This document shows, piece after piece, positions 1,422-38,359 of a DNA stretch of 58,639 nucleotides. Within the stretch, counting starts at the first letter, position 1. Each line of letters opens with the position of its first letter. The position numbers were made by a program, and so were the translations under genes. The notes beneath the pieces are model-generated. The model was not told the DNA's origin. It saw only the letters and a program-made list of their open reading frames with translations, and made no database searches. This DNA comes from a virus (taxonomy: Duplodnaviria > Caudoviricetes): positions 1 to 58,639 of the IMG/VR virus record IMGVR_UViG_3300034064_000176; one strand, 5' to 3'.

Positions 1422-4400
1422 ATGCCAAACCCACGCGCCCAAAAGAATCCGACGTTCATCCCCCAGGCCCTGCAAGGCCTAGCCGACATGGGCCGCGGTG
1501 CGGTACGAGGCGCCCTGGCAGAAAGCTTGGGTACGGCAGGTGACCTTACCCAAGCGCTGAGCAACATCAAGACGGCAGGCTTCATGCCAGCCATGCTTGC
1601 AAGGGGCCTACAAGGGCCTACAAGCGAAGAAATGAGCCACGCCTTACGAGGCATGACCCCGAACCCTTTAACGCAGCCTGACCGCGCTCATACAGCCCAG
1701 ATGGGCCAGACTTTCGGGTCGATCCCTGCATCGATGGCTGGAGGGGCTGGGACCAATGCTGCACTGCAAAAGATGGCAGGCAGGCTAAACAACATGCAGA
1801 AGGTTGAGTCCATGATGCCCAAGGCGCCCAAGCCGGTAGCCGAGGTACTCAAGGGGCCCGAGCCCGACTTCATGCGCGTCTACTCTGGCCAGCGTATCCC
1901 GATCGAGGGCAAGTTCGACATCATGAGGGCAGATCCCCACGCCTCGATGGGTCGCGCCTTCTACACGGCAGAGCTTCCTCGGTACGCCAACAAGTTCACC
2001 GGCAATCAGCCTGGAGCTAACGTCACGCCCGTCGACGTTGATCGCAACCGGATGCTGATGTTCGACAAGATGTACGACACGCCTCAAGGCCAAATGGAAG
2101 GCCTTGATTACTACGACATGCTGCGCAGGCAGGCCATGGTCAAGCCTGGGATCGGCAAGGACATGATCCGCCAGGAGATCCTCGACGCTGGCTTTGCCGG
2201 TACTCAAATGCCCAACGCGACGGGAAAGGCTTATGCAATCTACGACCCGAGCGTGGCCCAGGACATGTCCGGCCGTGGTTTCGCACGCGGCGGTCTGGTA
2301 GACGGCTCGAGCAATGATGACGCAACTGGAGGTCAGGGCTGGAGAGCGGCTCCCGGCATGGCTGCTGGCGGAGTTCCTTATAAAGGCATCAACCCCATAG
2401 CGACCGGCCTGGGCCAAATGAGACAGCAGTCCGTAGCGAGGGATGCAGCTTCGAACCTGATGGCCAAAAACCGAGCCGCTCAGTTTGCCAATCAAGGCGC
2501 TGATCGTCTTGCCCGTCAGAATCAATTGGCAGCCGCCAAGACCGCACGCCTGAATGCCCTGGCACCCAAGCTGTCGACCTACGTCCCGCCTGCGGGATCT
2601 ACGACGACCAGTCCGACGGTTACCAGCCCAGCGGTTACCGACCCAGCAACTACCACGGTCGACTCAACGACGCCGATCGTACCAGCAGCCAAGCCGGACG
2701 ATCCAGGTAATTACCAGGGCGGTGCTCGAGGCGGCCTCGTAAGCATGGCAGGCGGCGGTTTGGCCAAGAAGGCCGCCGAGAAGGCTTTTAGGGCCCTTCC
2801 CGGTCAGAGTTTCCAGGGCAAGTCTGGCTTGAACATGGAAATGCCCAAGGACATCGAGAAGAGAATCCTGGAGATCACCGAGTCCGGTCTCATCCTGCCG
2901 TCCGAAGCTTTGGGTAAGCACGAAGGCAAGACGCTGATGATCACCCAGGCCGATAGGACTAAAGTCGGAGAGGGCTTTCTCGGCGGCCCGGGGTTCTCGG
3001 GTATTCAGCTTACCGAACCGCGTTATGCCGGTGCGACCTGGGGCGTTAAGACGCCTGGAGTGGGTCAGACCATCATAGGGTCCAATCGCCGCGTGCCTGA
3101 AGGCCAAGCGATCTGGACGACCATGCTTGGAACGCCGACTCAGCACAAGTCGAACCAAATGGTATTTGACCGCCTTTACAAGGAGTTTATGGGCGGCGTT
3201 AAGCAAGAAAAGCTTACGCCCGAACTCAAAGACACCCTGAACGCAAAACTTGCCTCGGTGGTCGATAAGGAGGGCAAGAACCTATTTCCGGCGGATGTCG
3301 ATATTACGAACCCCAGGAAGTTCCGCAAGCTTGTCGACACCTTCGACAAACGTGCAGCCGCTGCTGACGTCATGGGCGGTATCGGCGTTGGCGGTAAGAA
3401 GGGTCAGATCTTCGACTACGACCGGATTATTCAACGCACGACAGATCCGGCGCTCTTGGAAGTGCCGACGGGTTCGCTTGGCAACCGCCTTTTCCAACTT
3501 AGCGGCGAGATGATGGACAGGCCCGATCTTCACCCAGCTTTCCCGACCATCCTCAAAGGCGAGGACCTTGGCGTCAGCTTTATGCCTGCGCCACGAGAAC
3601 TGCTGATGGAGGACTACATCAACAAGGTCCTTACTGAGAAGGGTCGGCAGCCTGGGTACATGGACTGGACTCGAGGCTACGCGCCATCCCAGTTTCTATC
3701 CGAAGAGCTACTGACCAAGCTTCAAAAGGCTGGCTACAAGAAGGGCGGCAAGGTTAAAAAGATGCAAGCAGGCGGCATAGCCAAGGCGGTTAAGAGCGGC
3801 CTCCAGGCCCTTGATAAGCCCGCTAAGCAGACCATCACGTCGGCCATCGATCCCACTATGGACATCGCAAGCAGGCTGTCCCAGCCCGATCGCGTCAACC
3901 TCCTGCCGATGCCTAGCCGGTGGTTCCTTGATCCCAAGAACAACCCGAACGTGCAAAAGCTCGTCGAGAAGGTCCTCGAGGTCAACAACATGAAGCGCTC
4001 GGACTTTTACTCGGGCGCCTTCGTGAACCCGCGTACCGGCGAGGTCATGGACAAGAAGGTCATGCAGGACGTCGGTGTACTGATTAACCCGAATACCGGC
4101 AGGCCCATGATGAGCGCCGAGAAGGAAACGGACCTCACCATTGGCGACCGCAAGAAGGGCTCGATCACCAAGTCAAACCTCGTGCGCAAACAGCTTTACG
4201 AGACCGAAGGCGATCCAATCCTCAAGGACCTGGACTTCCTCGTGGCCATCGAGCAATCGGGCATGGGACACAAGTACGGGCTGGCCACTGAGTACGCCAC
4301 GCCTGCCGAAATGTTCAATACCATGACGGGCGACAACCCAACCCTTAGGCCGAAGAGCCAGGGCGATGTCTTCGGGATTGGCGACATCGTTGGGCGCATG

Positions 4401-4526
4401 TCCATGAAATCGAGCAAGATGCCCCACGACGTTTACGAATCCTTACTAATCGCGCCCAAAGGCTCCGACGTCCAGGGCGTCAAGCTGAGCAAGAAGAAGG
4501 GCGGCATAGTGAAAGGGCGCAAATGA
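1422..4526 (+). CDS. Large multi-module (polyvalent-like) virion-associated protein with ART-like module and 7 GG tags
   Basis: 1034 aa; ART-like segment RVYSG..AFYT..YAIYDPS; modules separated by xAxGG/xKxGG motifs. Confidence 0.7.
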   Translation: MPNPRAQKNPTFIPQALQGLADMGRGAVRGALAESLGTAGDLTQALSNIKTAGFMPAMLARGLQGPTSEEMSHALRGMTPNPLTQPDRAHTAQMGQTFGSIPASMAGGAGTNAALQKMAGRLNNMQKVESMMPKAPKPVAEVLKGPEPDFMRVYSGQRIPIEGKFDIMRADPHASMGRAFYTAELPRYANKFTGNQPGANVTPVDVDRNRMLMFDKMYDTPQGQMEGLDYYDMLRRQAMVKPGIGKDMIRQEILDAGFAGTQMPNATGKAYAIYDPSVAQDMSGRGFARGGLVDGSSNDDATGGQGWRAAPGMAAGGVPYKGINPIATGLGQMRQQSVARDAASNLMAKNRAAQFANQGADRLARQNQLAAAKTARLNALAPKLSTYVPPAGSTTTSPTVTSPAVTDPATTTVDSTTPIVPAAKPDDPGNYQGGARGGLVSMAGGGLAKKAAEKAFRALPGQSFQGKSGLNMEMPKDIEKRILEITESGLILPSEALGKHEGKTLMITQADRTKVGEGFLGGPGFSGIQLTEPRYAGATWGVKTPGVGQTIIGSNRRVPEGQAIWTTMLGTPTQHKSNQMVFDRLYKEFMGGVKQEKLTPELKDTLNAKLASVVDKEGKNLFPADVDITNPRKFRKLVDTFDKRAAAADVMGGIGVGGKKGQIFDYDRIIQRTTDPALLEVPTGSLGNRLFQLSGEMMDRPDLHPAFPTILKGEDLGVSFMPAPRELLMEDYINKVLTEKGRQPGYMDWTRGYAPSQFLSEELLTKLQKAGYKKGGKVKKMQAGGIAKAVKSGLQALDKPAKQTITSAIDPTMDIASRLSQPDRVNLLPMPSRWFLDPKNNPNVQKLVEKVLEVNNMKRSDFYSGAFVNPRTGEVMDKKVMQDVGVLINPNTGRPMMSAEKETDLTIGDRKKGSITKSNLVRKQLYETEGDPILKDLDFLVAIEQSGMGHKYGLATEYATPAEMFNTMTGDNPTLRPKSQGDVFGIGDIVGRMSMKSSKMPHDVYESLLIAPKGSDVQGVKLSKKKGGIVKGRK

Positions 4527-37700: not shown

Positions 37701-38359
37701 GTGGCGGAAGTCGTTACTACCCATCGGCCGCTGTATCGGGCAACGCAGGCTTTAAGAACATCCCATCGTTATCACCAACCTTTTTAGCGGCGGCGCCGGT
37801 TATGAAAGAGAAGACAATCTCCAACCTCCCCGAGAGCTTGGTACAAACCCTCATGAGGATGGGCATCAGCAAGAAGCTGATCTCGCAAATTGCTGCCAAC
37901 GCGAAGGTCGACTTATCCGAAGAGGATCAAAAGGCGATGGAGCCCTCTACGACCGTCAAAGGGGCGCTCGAGCAAGTTAATGCGGATGAGCTTGACGAGC
38001 AGCCAAGGACCGGCGGCCAACCTGAAAAGCCCCAGCAAAAGGCTATGGGCGGGTTGATGAAGATGGCCGAGACCAATGGCTTTGCAGGCACCCCGGATTC
38101 GAGGAGAATGCAGGGTTATGCGGTTGGCGGTGCTGGAGGCGGCCAGGATGACCTTATTCCCGCACTGTTAGCGGATGGCGAGTATGTGATGGACGCCGAT
38201 ATTGTTGCTGCACTTGGTGACGGCTCTTCGAAGGAAGGTGCCAAAAAGCTCGACAAGATGCGTGAGGCAATCCGTAAACATAAGCGTGCCGCACCGGTCA
38301 ACAAAATTCCGCCAAAGGCTAGGTCGCCCTTGGCATACTTGAAAGAAAGCGCGAGGTAA
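34751..38359 (+). CDS. Internal virion/ejection protein with (GT)n tract and C-terminal tape-measure-like GEYV domain
   Basis: 1202 aa; hydrophobic Gly-rich helices, GT tract, [27 protein letters not shown]. Confidence 0.7.
37124..37683 (+). repeat. Gly-Thr dipeptide repeat (~185 aa) with short Gly-Ser interruptions
   Basis: GGN-ACN hexamer array with shuffled third positions. Confidence 0.95.

Follow-up and report, generated by a model that had tools for sequence, protein, structure and literature searches.

Short peptides that address proteins to the inside of HK97-fold shells are known from the encapsulin cargo-loading peptides and the T4 capsid-targeting sequence, and these are terminal. 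Polyvalent phage proteins are thought to be the first weapons delivered into the cell; the peptide described here offers a way to ask how phages load them into the head, keep them poised for ejection, and perhaps split them into active enzymes. Iyer et al. 2017 propose that such proteins are processed (PMC5512222). As reported from proteomics, gp47 of phage phi24B is a virion-borne polyvalent protein (10.64898/2026.04.10.717836), and the account of crAss-like phages by Bayfield et al. 2023 (PMC10172136) describes large, internal cargo proteins that are stored in head and tail and extruded partly unfolded. A junction or end peptide is not described in PMC5512222, whose main text contains no occurrence of "linker" or "glycine", and a Gly-Gly motif is not described in PMC10172136, whose main text contains no occurrence of "glycine" or "cleav". 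No published description of the peptide was found in the literature.

The peptide, hereafter the tag, was found in a freshwater phage represented by a 58,639-nt stretch of DNA (the window). It is short, strongly conserved, and built on two Gly pairs, with the consensus aromatic/basic, Ala/Lys, x, Gly-Gly, x, Val/Ile/Ala, x, Met/Leu, x, x, Gly-Gly; a half-length form occurs at protein ends. Counting the first Gly as 0, the conserved non-Gly positions are Tyr/Lys at -3, Ala/Lys at -2, Val/Ile/Ala at +3, and Met/Leu at +5. The carriers and their tags are as follows.

1422..4526, + strand: giant protein 1, 1034 aa (ORF call), with modules A (~aa 1-286), B (~447-771), and C (~786-1023) and tags between them and at the end
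2280..2300, + strand: single tag FARGGLV, end of module A (HSP start at query aa 287 in 7 homologues)
2358..2375, + strand: single tag MAAGGV (string match)
2721..2759, + strand: tandem tag GARGGLVSMAGGG, ahead of module B (tandem-tag HMM, 19.0 bits; pLDDT <50)
3735..3776, + strand: tandem tag YKKGGKVKKMQAGG, junction of modules B and C (string match; conserved Gly; pLDDT <50)
4491..4523, + strand: C-terminal half-tag KKKGGIVKGRK, end of giant 1 (G1027 and G1028 at least 90% conserved)
4523..9292, + strand: giant protein 2, 1589 aa, polyvalent, with an N-terminal ART-PolyVal match (aa 42-206), then three modules with tandem tags between
5168..5206, + strand: tandem tag KAEGGLIRMQGGG, immediately past the ART module (tandem-tag HMM, 24.2 bits)
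6410..6448, + strand: tandem tag YRKGGLVRMSNGG (tandem-tag HMM, 23.5 bits)
8294..8332, + strand: tandem tag YKHGGVVKMAAGG (tandem-tag HMM, 23.0 bits)
9218..9289, + strand: C-terminal tag YKEGG, then the conserved end peptide PDTDAMRLEMMRKSWRSK, directly ahead of the portal gene (relatives compared)
16013..16588, + strand: tag-only protein, 191 aa, with about 10 GG-centred units (by eye) and a C-terminal Cys, predicted disordered
17757..18155, + strand: small basic DUF6321 protein (Pfam PF19846, E 1.3e-16), with LKEGG at 17910-17924 upstream of the domain
38117..38206, + strand: YAVGG and 24 further residues in the C-terminal part of a 1202-aa putative ejection protein (34751-38359; string match, relatives)

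An earlier note on this DNA had reported about 26 copies in six late proteins. Every string it listed was found at its coordinate, and the motif is real but confined to fewer proteins than claimed, namely the two giants and the 16013-16588 protein. Using that note's own expression, [YFMLK][AKR].GG, and 400 composition-matched shuffles per protein group, the two giants yielded 10 matches against 1.26 expected and the 16013 ORF 7 against 0.42, with 0 of 400 shuffles as high in either case, whereas the remaining 31 late proteins, pooled, stood at chance (4 matches against 4.72 expected; 274 of 400 shuffles as high). Where nine copies had been counted in the 16013 ORF, seven thus fit the expression. 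The 22 early/replication-side ORFs (4021 aa) had 0 matches against 0.95 expected. The tandem form GGx[VIM]x(K)MxxGG, which like the first expression was defined after seeing the data and tuned on them, occurs five times against 0.00 expected, in the giants only. A more independent test used an HMM built from 174 homologue tandem tags, leaving out exact window copies, against all 796 six-frame ORFs of the window. Four matches of 19-24 bits all fell within the giants, and the next, at only 4.3 bits, was the fifth tandem tag, which is one residue longer. A tag profile search matched 149 protein clusters among 1.84 billion.

The other proposed carriers fared unevenly. LKHGG is present in a 51-aa ORF (11754-11909) that is unsupported as a tag carrier. 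The LKEGG of the 17757 ORF is statistically at chance level, but homology makes it plausible that this ORF is a cargo module standing alone: in the polyvalent relatives P0270 and P0281, DUF6321 follows tags as the C-terminal module, and it is also listed in P0162, P0211, P0213, and P0214. KAMGGLMKM is present at 38039 in the 34751 ORF, where relatives support a different copy, the YAVGG at 38117. The counterparts of this ORF in MW202545 and Caulobacter phage RW each contain a tag-like peptide, and tblastn to these two genomes found the downstream domain conserved, with the alignment beginning downstream of both window copies.

Tag density was also compared across 106 IMG/VR loci, with ORFs classed by best blastp hit and shuffles as control. 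Per 1000 aa, tags numbered 4.93 in giant-1-like proteins (0.46 in shuffles), 3.27 in giant-2-like (0.51), 25.8 in tag-only (1.62), and 3.17 in DUF6321 proteins (0.67). The corresponding values were 0.08 for portal (0.13), 0.07 for TerL (0.34), 0 for GroES (0.37), 0.05 for adaptor (0.36), and 1.05 for fibre proteins (0.95). Some relatives with a tag-only protein have giants carrying just 1-2 tags.

Judged by sequence, the giants fit the description of polyvalent proteins by Iyer et al. 2017 (PMC5512222), with which the window and its relatives share giant multi-module proteins, an apparent place in the head-morphogenesis region, ART-PolyVal, and extensive shuffling. The giant genes lie between the large terminase and portal genes in the window and in relatives, and the start of giant 2 overlaps the stop of giant 1 (ATGA). 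The ART-PolyVal match of giant 2 (Pfam PF18760, E 2.3e-6, 28.9 bits) is under the 31.2 cut-off, and those of its homologues P0072 and P0069 are above it. Homologues sharing giant modules contain ART-PolyVal above cut-off, LPD23, PcfJ, and SLT, as well as ParB_N under its cut-off. The MuF and zincin peptidase modules expected by Iyer et al. (PMC5512222) were found in none of the scanned window proteins or homologues. The place of the giants between terminase and portal, together with the polyvalent proteins of other phages, suggests that the giants are probably carried in the phage head.

The claim that tags mark domain boundaries and C-termini was confirmed in homologues, by HSP breakpoints and by counts over the last 30 aa. 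Giant 1 has 296 homologues with shuffled architectures, and its HSP ends cluster at aa 287, 425-494, 768-791, and 1029-1034. Modules B and C occur in relatives alone, together, or in reversed order. Across 218 homologues, which are not phylogenetically independent sequences, the tag sits where homology breaks, module order is permuted, and a tag closes the C-terminus in 161. In 72 of 98 and 89 of 120 homologues, compared with 5.2 and 6.3 for shuffles, a tag is found among the last 30 aa, frequently with 4-10 residues to follow. HSP breakpoints fall within 15 aa of a tag in 46% of cases for giant 1 (subject side) and 61% for giant 2, against 15% for each; among 210 breakpoints of giant 2, the proportion is 55% against 11% expected. 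Most relatives also share an ending, of the form ..D.MRLE..RK and then a basic tail, on whichever giant comes last ahead of the portal. The suggestion that interchangeable effectors are strung together at tags likewise held, as relatives have swapped, permuted, fused, and split modules there; the boundary between the giant 1 and giant 2 genes itself lies within a tag position at which P0056-P0059 are fused. These observations support the tag as a peptide-level signal located where exchangeable modules meet and where giant multi-effector proteins end at their C-termini.

Within the YKKGGKVKKMQAGG tag, G775 and G776 are invariant and K773 and G784 at least 90% conserved (31 sequences). The giant-1 alignment (1034 columns) has 8 invariant columns, 3 of which, at aa 771-776, lie in this tag or one residue before it. 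AF2 modeled giant 1 confidently only over aa 490-772, and pLDDT is below 50 at all giant-1 tags.

Such properties could also belong to a flexible Gly-rich spacer that has no reader and is kept solely as a conserved coding sequence, serving as a recombination seam during module exchange. Homology breakpoints do fall inside tags, the tags are predicted to be unstructured, and the strongest repeats at DNA level within 1422-9292 (families D1, D2, and D8) correspond to the tags. The six-residue tag middle is partly co-inherited with either flank (3.07 and 3.75 identical residues vs 2.23). Yet the DNA coding for different tags shows only 67-89% identity over 16-30 nt, with Gly and Val codons mixed freely; among 37 distinct DNA versions, three of the four invariant Gly positions use all four Gly codons and the remaining one uses three. 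The constraint therefore lies on the peptide, as had been proposed from the divergence of the tag DNA. Specific non-Gly positions (-3, -2, +3, and +5) are conserved as well, tags also end proteins where nothing follows, and they fill a core tag-only protein that has no modules to separate. We consider a pure recombination seam improbable.

A second DNA-level reading, in which the tandem tag provides an internal ribosome-binding site and start codon so that modules are also translated separately, is already disfavoured and has almost no likelihood in our estimation. It draws on the tag Met, conserved in 81% of homologue tags, on the database protein P0035, which begins exactly at the tag Met, and on the start of giant 2, which lies where the Met of a tag would be. 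However, GGAGG occurs in just one of five tandem tags, the purine-rich stretches are ~14 nt from the ATG, and Met is replaced by Leu in 18% of homologue tags (with CTT, CTA, or CTC as its codon at the loci studied). Nor would this reading account for the second Gly-Gly or the single tags.

The tag-only protein belongs to the core gene set of a large group of IMG/VR phages. Its N-terminus is conserved (MGQFKPMVKM.TTEPSVELKLKKGG), its tag glycines are invariant across 37 sequences, and its predicted structure (pTM 0.16) has a single helix at aa 86-105.

Nine of 11 window tags listed by eye have two hydrophobic residues right after Gly-Gly, and a phage GroES homologue is encoded in the head module (12081-12497; Pfam Cpn10, 30.5 bits, above cut-off). 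The tag might accordingly imitate the GroES mobile loop and recruit host GroEL to fold or refold modules before packaging or after ejection. The T5 tail-protein cleavage study of Zweig and Cummings from 1973 is reportedly among the evidence that host chaperonins are needed for capsid or tail assembly. In homologues, though, Ala, Glu, or Lys often comes directly after Gly-Gly, and position three is usually occupied by His, Arg, or Lys, which makes an alternating pattern rather than a hydrophobic tripeptide. Caulobacter phage RW, moreover, has a GroES gene yet neither giants nor a tag-only protein. Chaperonin recruitment thus appears very unlikely.

Between unrelated enzyme modules the tags occupy linkers predicted to be disordered, an arrangement seen in polyproteins, and cleavage at or beside the tags, while the head matures or once ejection has taken place, could divide the giants into separate effectors. 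The tag-only protein would then be chopped into small basic peptides, and the protease would be unrecognised, host-encoded, or autocatalytic. We regard processing as possible, albeit rather unlikely. The reported cut in the T5 tape measure pb2 is after R1127 (PMC10038345). In the T5 record AY543070, that residue closes FVPR and is followed by AEGGMMY; the 1219-aa protein has just 5 GG sites, this one included, and the 92 residues after the cut fit the stated size of pb2C. Lambda gpH is described as cut within its glycine-rich C-terminal region, with site and catalyst listed as an open question (PMC12617516), and this region holds FATGGF and YATGGYV in the N-terminal part of gpHC, which is unresolved there. 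Against processing, the T5 cut is two residues before Gly-Gly, not after, and is a single case of 7-residue resemblance. No protease or peptidase domain was found by Pfam in 39 window proteins (29 at E<=0.05, 9 at 0.01, one at 1) or 17 homologues, or by PHROGs in 10 window proteins. Matches to capsid families span aa 6-299 of the 304-aa capsid protein, leaving no room for a long N-terminal propeptide. Most C-terminal tags would free just 4-10 residues, and no Pfam family is common to the window proteins and the T5 and lambda tape measures. PF09718 (lambda gpH 627-701, upstream of its tags) and PF24165 (T5 pb2) gave no match to the 34751 C-terminus at E<=1.

The most likely reading, which we hold tentatively, is that the tag is an address or docking peptide that is not cut; both the docking and the absence of cutting are what we infer. 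Tags would be displayed in disordered linkers and tails of proteins kept inside the head and then ejected. Each effector module of both giants bears a tag on its C-terminal side, and the next module starts at or just past the second Gly-Gly, often with a basic amphipathic helix, so that the giants look as if autonomous cargo units had been fused end to end. The tag would be recognised by one shared reader, acting in the procapsid or along the ejection path, modules would be interchangeable by virtue of having their own handles, and the tag-only protein would string many such handles together in multivalent form. A peptide left intact also suits the end tags, where cleavage 4-10 residues from the terminus would seem to serve little purpose. 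The tag is not general to polyvalent proteins, given 0 tags in the 2807 aa of phi24B gp47, which fits a lineage-specific reader.

A broader proposal, which we think has a small chance of being right, is that the tag belongs to a general tailed-phage "cargo code" in lambda and T5 tape measures, polyvalent effectors, and the ejection proteins of podoviruses. It would be read at assembly or ejection by a single conserved machine or reaction (e.g., by a site-specific cut or a hand-off), with the tag-only protein as a multivalent hub or decoy. If so, tagged effector modules could be freely swappable between phages. A relation to lambda and T5 tape-measure cleavage, if it exists, would bear on the question listed as open in PMC12617516. 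The tag at seams and ends is also a concrete handle, open to mutation, reporter fusion, or use as bait, and a sequence signature for finding cargo proteins and module boundaries in metagenomes.

The window giants would resemble the crAss-like cargo proteins as large internal proteins. T5 pb2 and lambda gpH have the same core (Ala/Lys, x, Gly-Gly, hydrophobic) in a tail-ejected protein, at the cut in T5 and near that of lambda, and in both lambda gpH and the window 34751 ORF a tag-like peptide precedes a conserved Gly-Glu-aromatic-Val segment. The resemblance spans 5-7 residues, however, and the tape measures have neither tandem tags nor module seams. If the two peptides are the same signal, they are hard to square with a phage-encoded docking site, as the capsid proteins of these phages are very different. 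That the T5 peptide lies exactly at a mapped cleavage site counts against docking, and so do the giants that bear just 1-2 tags in relatives with a tag-only protein.

Adenain is an adenovirus cysteine protease that cuts at Gly-Gly, and its substrates include basic core-protein precursors, which the tag-only protein resembles in being small, basic, and punctuated by such sites. Adenain-type sites, like the tag, have a hydrophobic residue a few positions before Gly-Gly, although relative to the consensus that of the tag is one position further away; no cysteine protease or other peptidase for such cutting was found in the window proteins scanned (Pfam and PHROGs). The encapsulin cargo-loading peptides and the T4 capsid-targeting sequence are likewise short peptides on a disordered tail, common to unrelated cargo; the window tag differs in being also internal, repeated, and arranged in tandem pairs.

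The late region of the window encodes two giant proteins and a smaller tag-only protein that share a short Gly-Gly peptide, hereafter the tag. Its tandem form carries two Gly-Gly pairs, and a half-length form, the half-tag, closes proteins. The genes are arranged as follows:

1422-4526: giant protein 1 (1034 aa; modules A, B and C), after the terminase in the late region
4523-9292: giant protein 2 (1589 aa), following giant 1
9277-11757: portal, following giant 2
12081-12497: GroES homologue (Pfam Cpn10, 30.5 bits, above cut-off), between portal and scaffold
Between the GroES and capsid genes: putative scaffold, then two small head proteins
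14653-15567: major capsid protein (Phage_capsid_4)
Between the capsid gene and the 16013-16588 ORF: 130-aa protein
16013-16588: tag-only protein (191 aa), followed by adaptor and fiber genes
34751-38359: putative ejection protein (1202 aa) with a 186-residue Gly-Thr/Gly-Ser run
After the 1202-aa protein, last in the listed order: SLT transglycosylase

The window, 58,639 bases long, represents a complete viral record. Its large terminase gene is split across the record ends (Terminase_6N at 57557-58639, the rest in 1-1413); the record is thus circularly permuted with respect to the genome. Among named phages, MW202545 and four Caulobacter phages come closest, their head genes sharing ~70% nucleotide identity with those of the window. 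The phage group is large and mostly uncultured, with capsid protein relatives in at least 591 among 600 candidate IMG/VR stretches, the best 80 of which are 88-100% identical. The GroES homologue is kept in relatives, Caulobacter phage RW included. For the 178-aa protein (13487-14020), the ESM Atlas returned solely unnamed viral clusters. The Gly-Thr/Gly-Ser dipeptide run at 37124-37687, unbroken over its length (188 residues counting Gly-Ala), stands out among phage proteins by its length and regularity. Portal and scaffold share DGSA[VI]V in an acidic context (9376-9393, aa 34-39, and 12565-12582, aa 18-23, respectively), also present near the N-termini of both proteins in some relatives; it is possibly a second shared assembly motif.

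An earlier note had described the tag as [YFMLK][AKR].GG, shared by six late proteins, and every string that it named is present where it had been placed. Measured against 400 composition-matched shuffles, the sharing is solid in three proteins, with 10 occurrences in the two giants (1.26 expected) and 7 in the 16013-16588 ORF (0.42 expected), whereas the other 31 late proteins, pooled, remain at chance (4 observed, 4.72 expected). LKHGG, in a 51-aa ORF at 11754, and KAMGG at 38039 gained no further support as tags. Replication genes had been thought free of clear copies, and the 22 early ORFs indeed contain none (0.95 expected). The tandem form occurs five times, in the giants only, where the note had placed such pairs (0.00 expected). 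When all 796 six-frame ORFs were searched with a profile of 174 tandem tags from homologues, four matches scored 19-24 bits, all within the giants; the fifth tandem tag, longer by one residue, comes next at 4.3 bits.

At the sequence level, selection acts on the tag peptide, and the earlier proposal of diverged DNA beneath a conserved peptide holds. Tag-coding DNA is 67-89% identical over 16-30 nt. Among 37 differing DNA versions, three of the four invariant glycines draw on all four Gly codons and the fourth on three; the Val position draws on four Val codons. Three of the eight invariant columns in a 31-sequence alignment of giant 1 fall at aa 771-776, inside a tag or one residue before it. 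With the first Gly numbered 0, the homologue consensus reads Tyr/Lys at -3, Ala/Lys at -2 and Gly-Gly at 0 and 1 and again at 8 and 9; between the glycines stand Leu/Ala/Val at 2, Val/Ala/Ile at 3, His/Arg/Lys at 4, Met (81%) or Leu (18%) at 5 and Ala/Gln at 6. An internal Shine-Dalgarno sequence with start codon was also considered and was ruled out by codon usage, spacing and Met-to-Leu replacement.

Judged by domain homology, the giants are polyvalent proteins, i.e., giant multi-effector proteins sensu Iyer et al. 2017 (PMC5512222). The N-terminus of giant 2 matches ART-PolyVal (aa 42-206, E 2.3e-6), slightly below the Pfam cut-off. Database searches retrieved 296 homologues of giant 1 and 184 of giant 2 (120 listed for each), and the domains found in homologues comprise ART-PolyVal (above cut-off), LPD23, PcfJ, SLT, a weak ParB_N and DUF6321, in widely varying architectures. 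Modules B (about aa 490-786) and C (about 773-1031) of giant 1 occur solo, paired or in reversed order (P0060, P0062 and P0074). Searches by tblastn with module B found no match in cultured phages, which leaves no cultured relative with proteomics to draw on; the ART module gave two weak matches in cultured phages and none in plasmids. The AlphaFold2 model of giant 1, built from the 31-sequence alignment, is confident solely at aa 490-772, with pLDDT below 50 at every tag and short helices predicted right behind the second Gly-Gly (447-457 and 787-797). Most of the model is of low confidence, and Foldseek returned no PDB match at E <=0.001.

The suggestion that tags lie at domain boundaries and C-termini was borne out in the homologues. 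Counted over proteins that are not phylogenetically independent, 46% of the 164 internal HSP ends of giant 1 (points where homology to a homologue breaks off) lie at most 15 aa from a tag of the homologue, against 15% expected from tag coverage, and 39% lie near tags in giant 1 itself, against 18%; the 210 internal ends of giant 2 give 61% against 15% and 55% against 11%; the two homologue sets contain 124 and 148 tandem tags, where shuffles give 1.7 and 2.1; and 72 of 98 and 89 of 120 homologues carry a tag in their last 30 residues (5.2 and 6.3 expected). Protein ends consist of a half-tag and a short basic tail, as in giant 1. Other proteins begin at the tag Met, or with Gly-Gly followed by a basic amphipathic helix. 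The boundary between the giant genes (ATGA overlap, 4523) is itself a tag position and is fused in homologues P0056-P0059. For the six residues between the glycine pairs, inheritance together with the left flank shows as 3.07 identical residues and with the right flank as 3.75, against 2.23 in unrelated pairs; the tag middle is thus co-inherited partly with either flank, and exchange therefore takes place inside the tag. A tag that acted as spacer and recombination seam, with no molecule reading it, seems unlikely, being at odds with both the conserved non-glycine positions and the terminal copies.

Giant termini recur in other respects. In most relatives, the last giant before the portal ends in (N/P)-D-x-(D)-x-M-R-L-E-x-x-R-K plus a basic tail (9236-9289 in the window; also related loci L012, L016, L018 and L019 and many database homologues). 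GG-x-I-T-x-DDL-I-I-EERPL is another end seen repeatedly, and MPNPRAQ(K/Q) a start seen repeatedly.

The tag-only protein belongs to the core genes of a large phage group, a finding that is new here. Its N-terminus is conserved, it holds about ten Gly-Gly units, its last residue is Cys, and it is predicted to be disordered save one helix (pTM 0.16). IMG/VR loci yielded 60 different versions (100-500 aa); across an alignment of 37, the glycines of the tags never change, while the number of units varies. Of 17 loci without a match to the search pattern, which misses N-terminal variants, 15 were inspected, and all 15 have a tag-rich basic ORF in the same place; a co-occurrence test with tagged giants therefore lacks negatives within the group. 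Caulobacter phage RW, without giants between terminase and portal and without a tag-only protein, is the sole case lacking both. Among phages, tblastn with the tag-only protein matched MW202545 only. The terminal Cys (codon 16583-16585) is present in at least 90% of the 37 aligned relatives (alignment A3). The DUF6321 protein likewise ends in Cys (18150-18152; ..RWKC, in relatives ..RWNC or ..RWNCPGW). Some tag-only proteins carry long His/Lys-rich stretches between tags, such as HHK and EHH runs (L014 11220-12497, L016 15379-16803).

Beyond the window, a census with a 35-position profile of 24 tandem tags, searched among 1.84 billion proteins, returned 149 cluster representatives at E <=0.001 and 21 at 1e-10, mostly of 800-2500 aa with two to eight matched stretches. 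Of these, 136 had not been found previously, and 86 of the 136 share a module with the window giants; among the other 50, ten were scanned with Pfam and six carry a polyvalent-type domain (ART-PolyVal, LPD23, PcfJ or DUF6321). The proteins enriched in tags in 106 related loci are the giants, the tag-only proteins and the DUF6321 proteins, along with the acidic N-terminal stretch of some scaffolds; portal, terminase, GroES, adaptor and fibers show no enrichment. The scaffold tag, (M/K)-A-x-GG-x-(V/A), lies in the acidic N-terminal fifth of 22 of 77 homologues (e.g., L014 7041-8060), within stretches otherwise dissimilar in sequence; the window's own scaffold has no tag. The capsid protein contains an invariant YQQGGVL (14860-14880, aa 70-76), present in 86 of 86 capsid ORFs of related loci, that resembles the cargo tag but is probably part of the capsid fold.

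As to function, we lean tentatively, in preference to processing, toward a tag that would remain uncut and serve as an address or docking site. Several features favor this reading: C-terminal copies stand a few residues from the protein end, no protease is detectable (no peptidase in 39 window proteins by Pfam or 10 by PHROGs), the tag is restricted to proteins expected inside the head, its context is predicted to be disordered, and a core protein consists of tags. That the tag mimics the GroES loop and recruits GroEL is a long shot, suggested by a pattern of glycine plus hydrophobic residues and by the GroES gene that the phage itself carries; a predicted complex of the GroEL apical domain (Swiss-Prot CH60_CAUVC aa 191-376) with tag-only aa 112-155 scored 0.00, which weighs neither way on binding.

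Proteolytic processing at the tag, possible if doubtful, has parallels in known tail proteins. T5 pb2 is cut after R1127 (PMC10038345; mapped in fig. S5G, fig. S8C and table S3), and at that point the T5 record reads ..FVPR|AEGGMMY. In lambda, the cleavage of gpH falls in a region that is rich in glycine (PMC12617516) and holds FATGGF and YATGGYV. Both resemblances to the tag are short, and no Pfam family links the proteins. No account of the motif was found in the literature, supplementary files aside, including term look-ups in PMC5512222 and PMC10172136. Phi24B gp47, reported in virions (10.64898/2026.04.10.717836), has no tag in its 2807 aa; the tag is thus not general to polyvalent proteins. 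New here, besides this tagless protein and the tag-profile census, are the breakdown of the junction into an end tag upstream and a leader downstream, and the crossover inside the tag.
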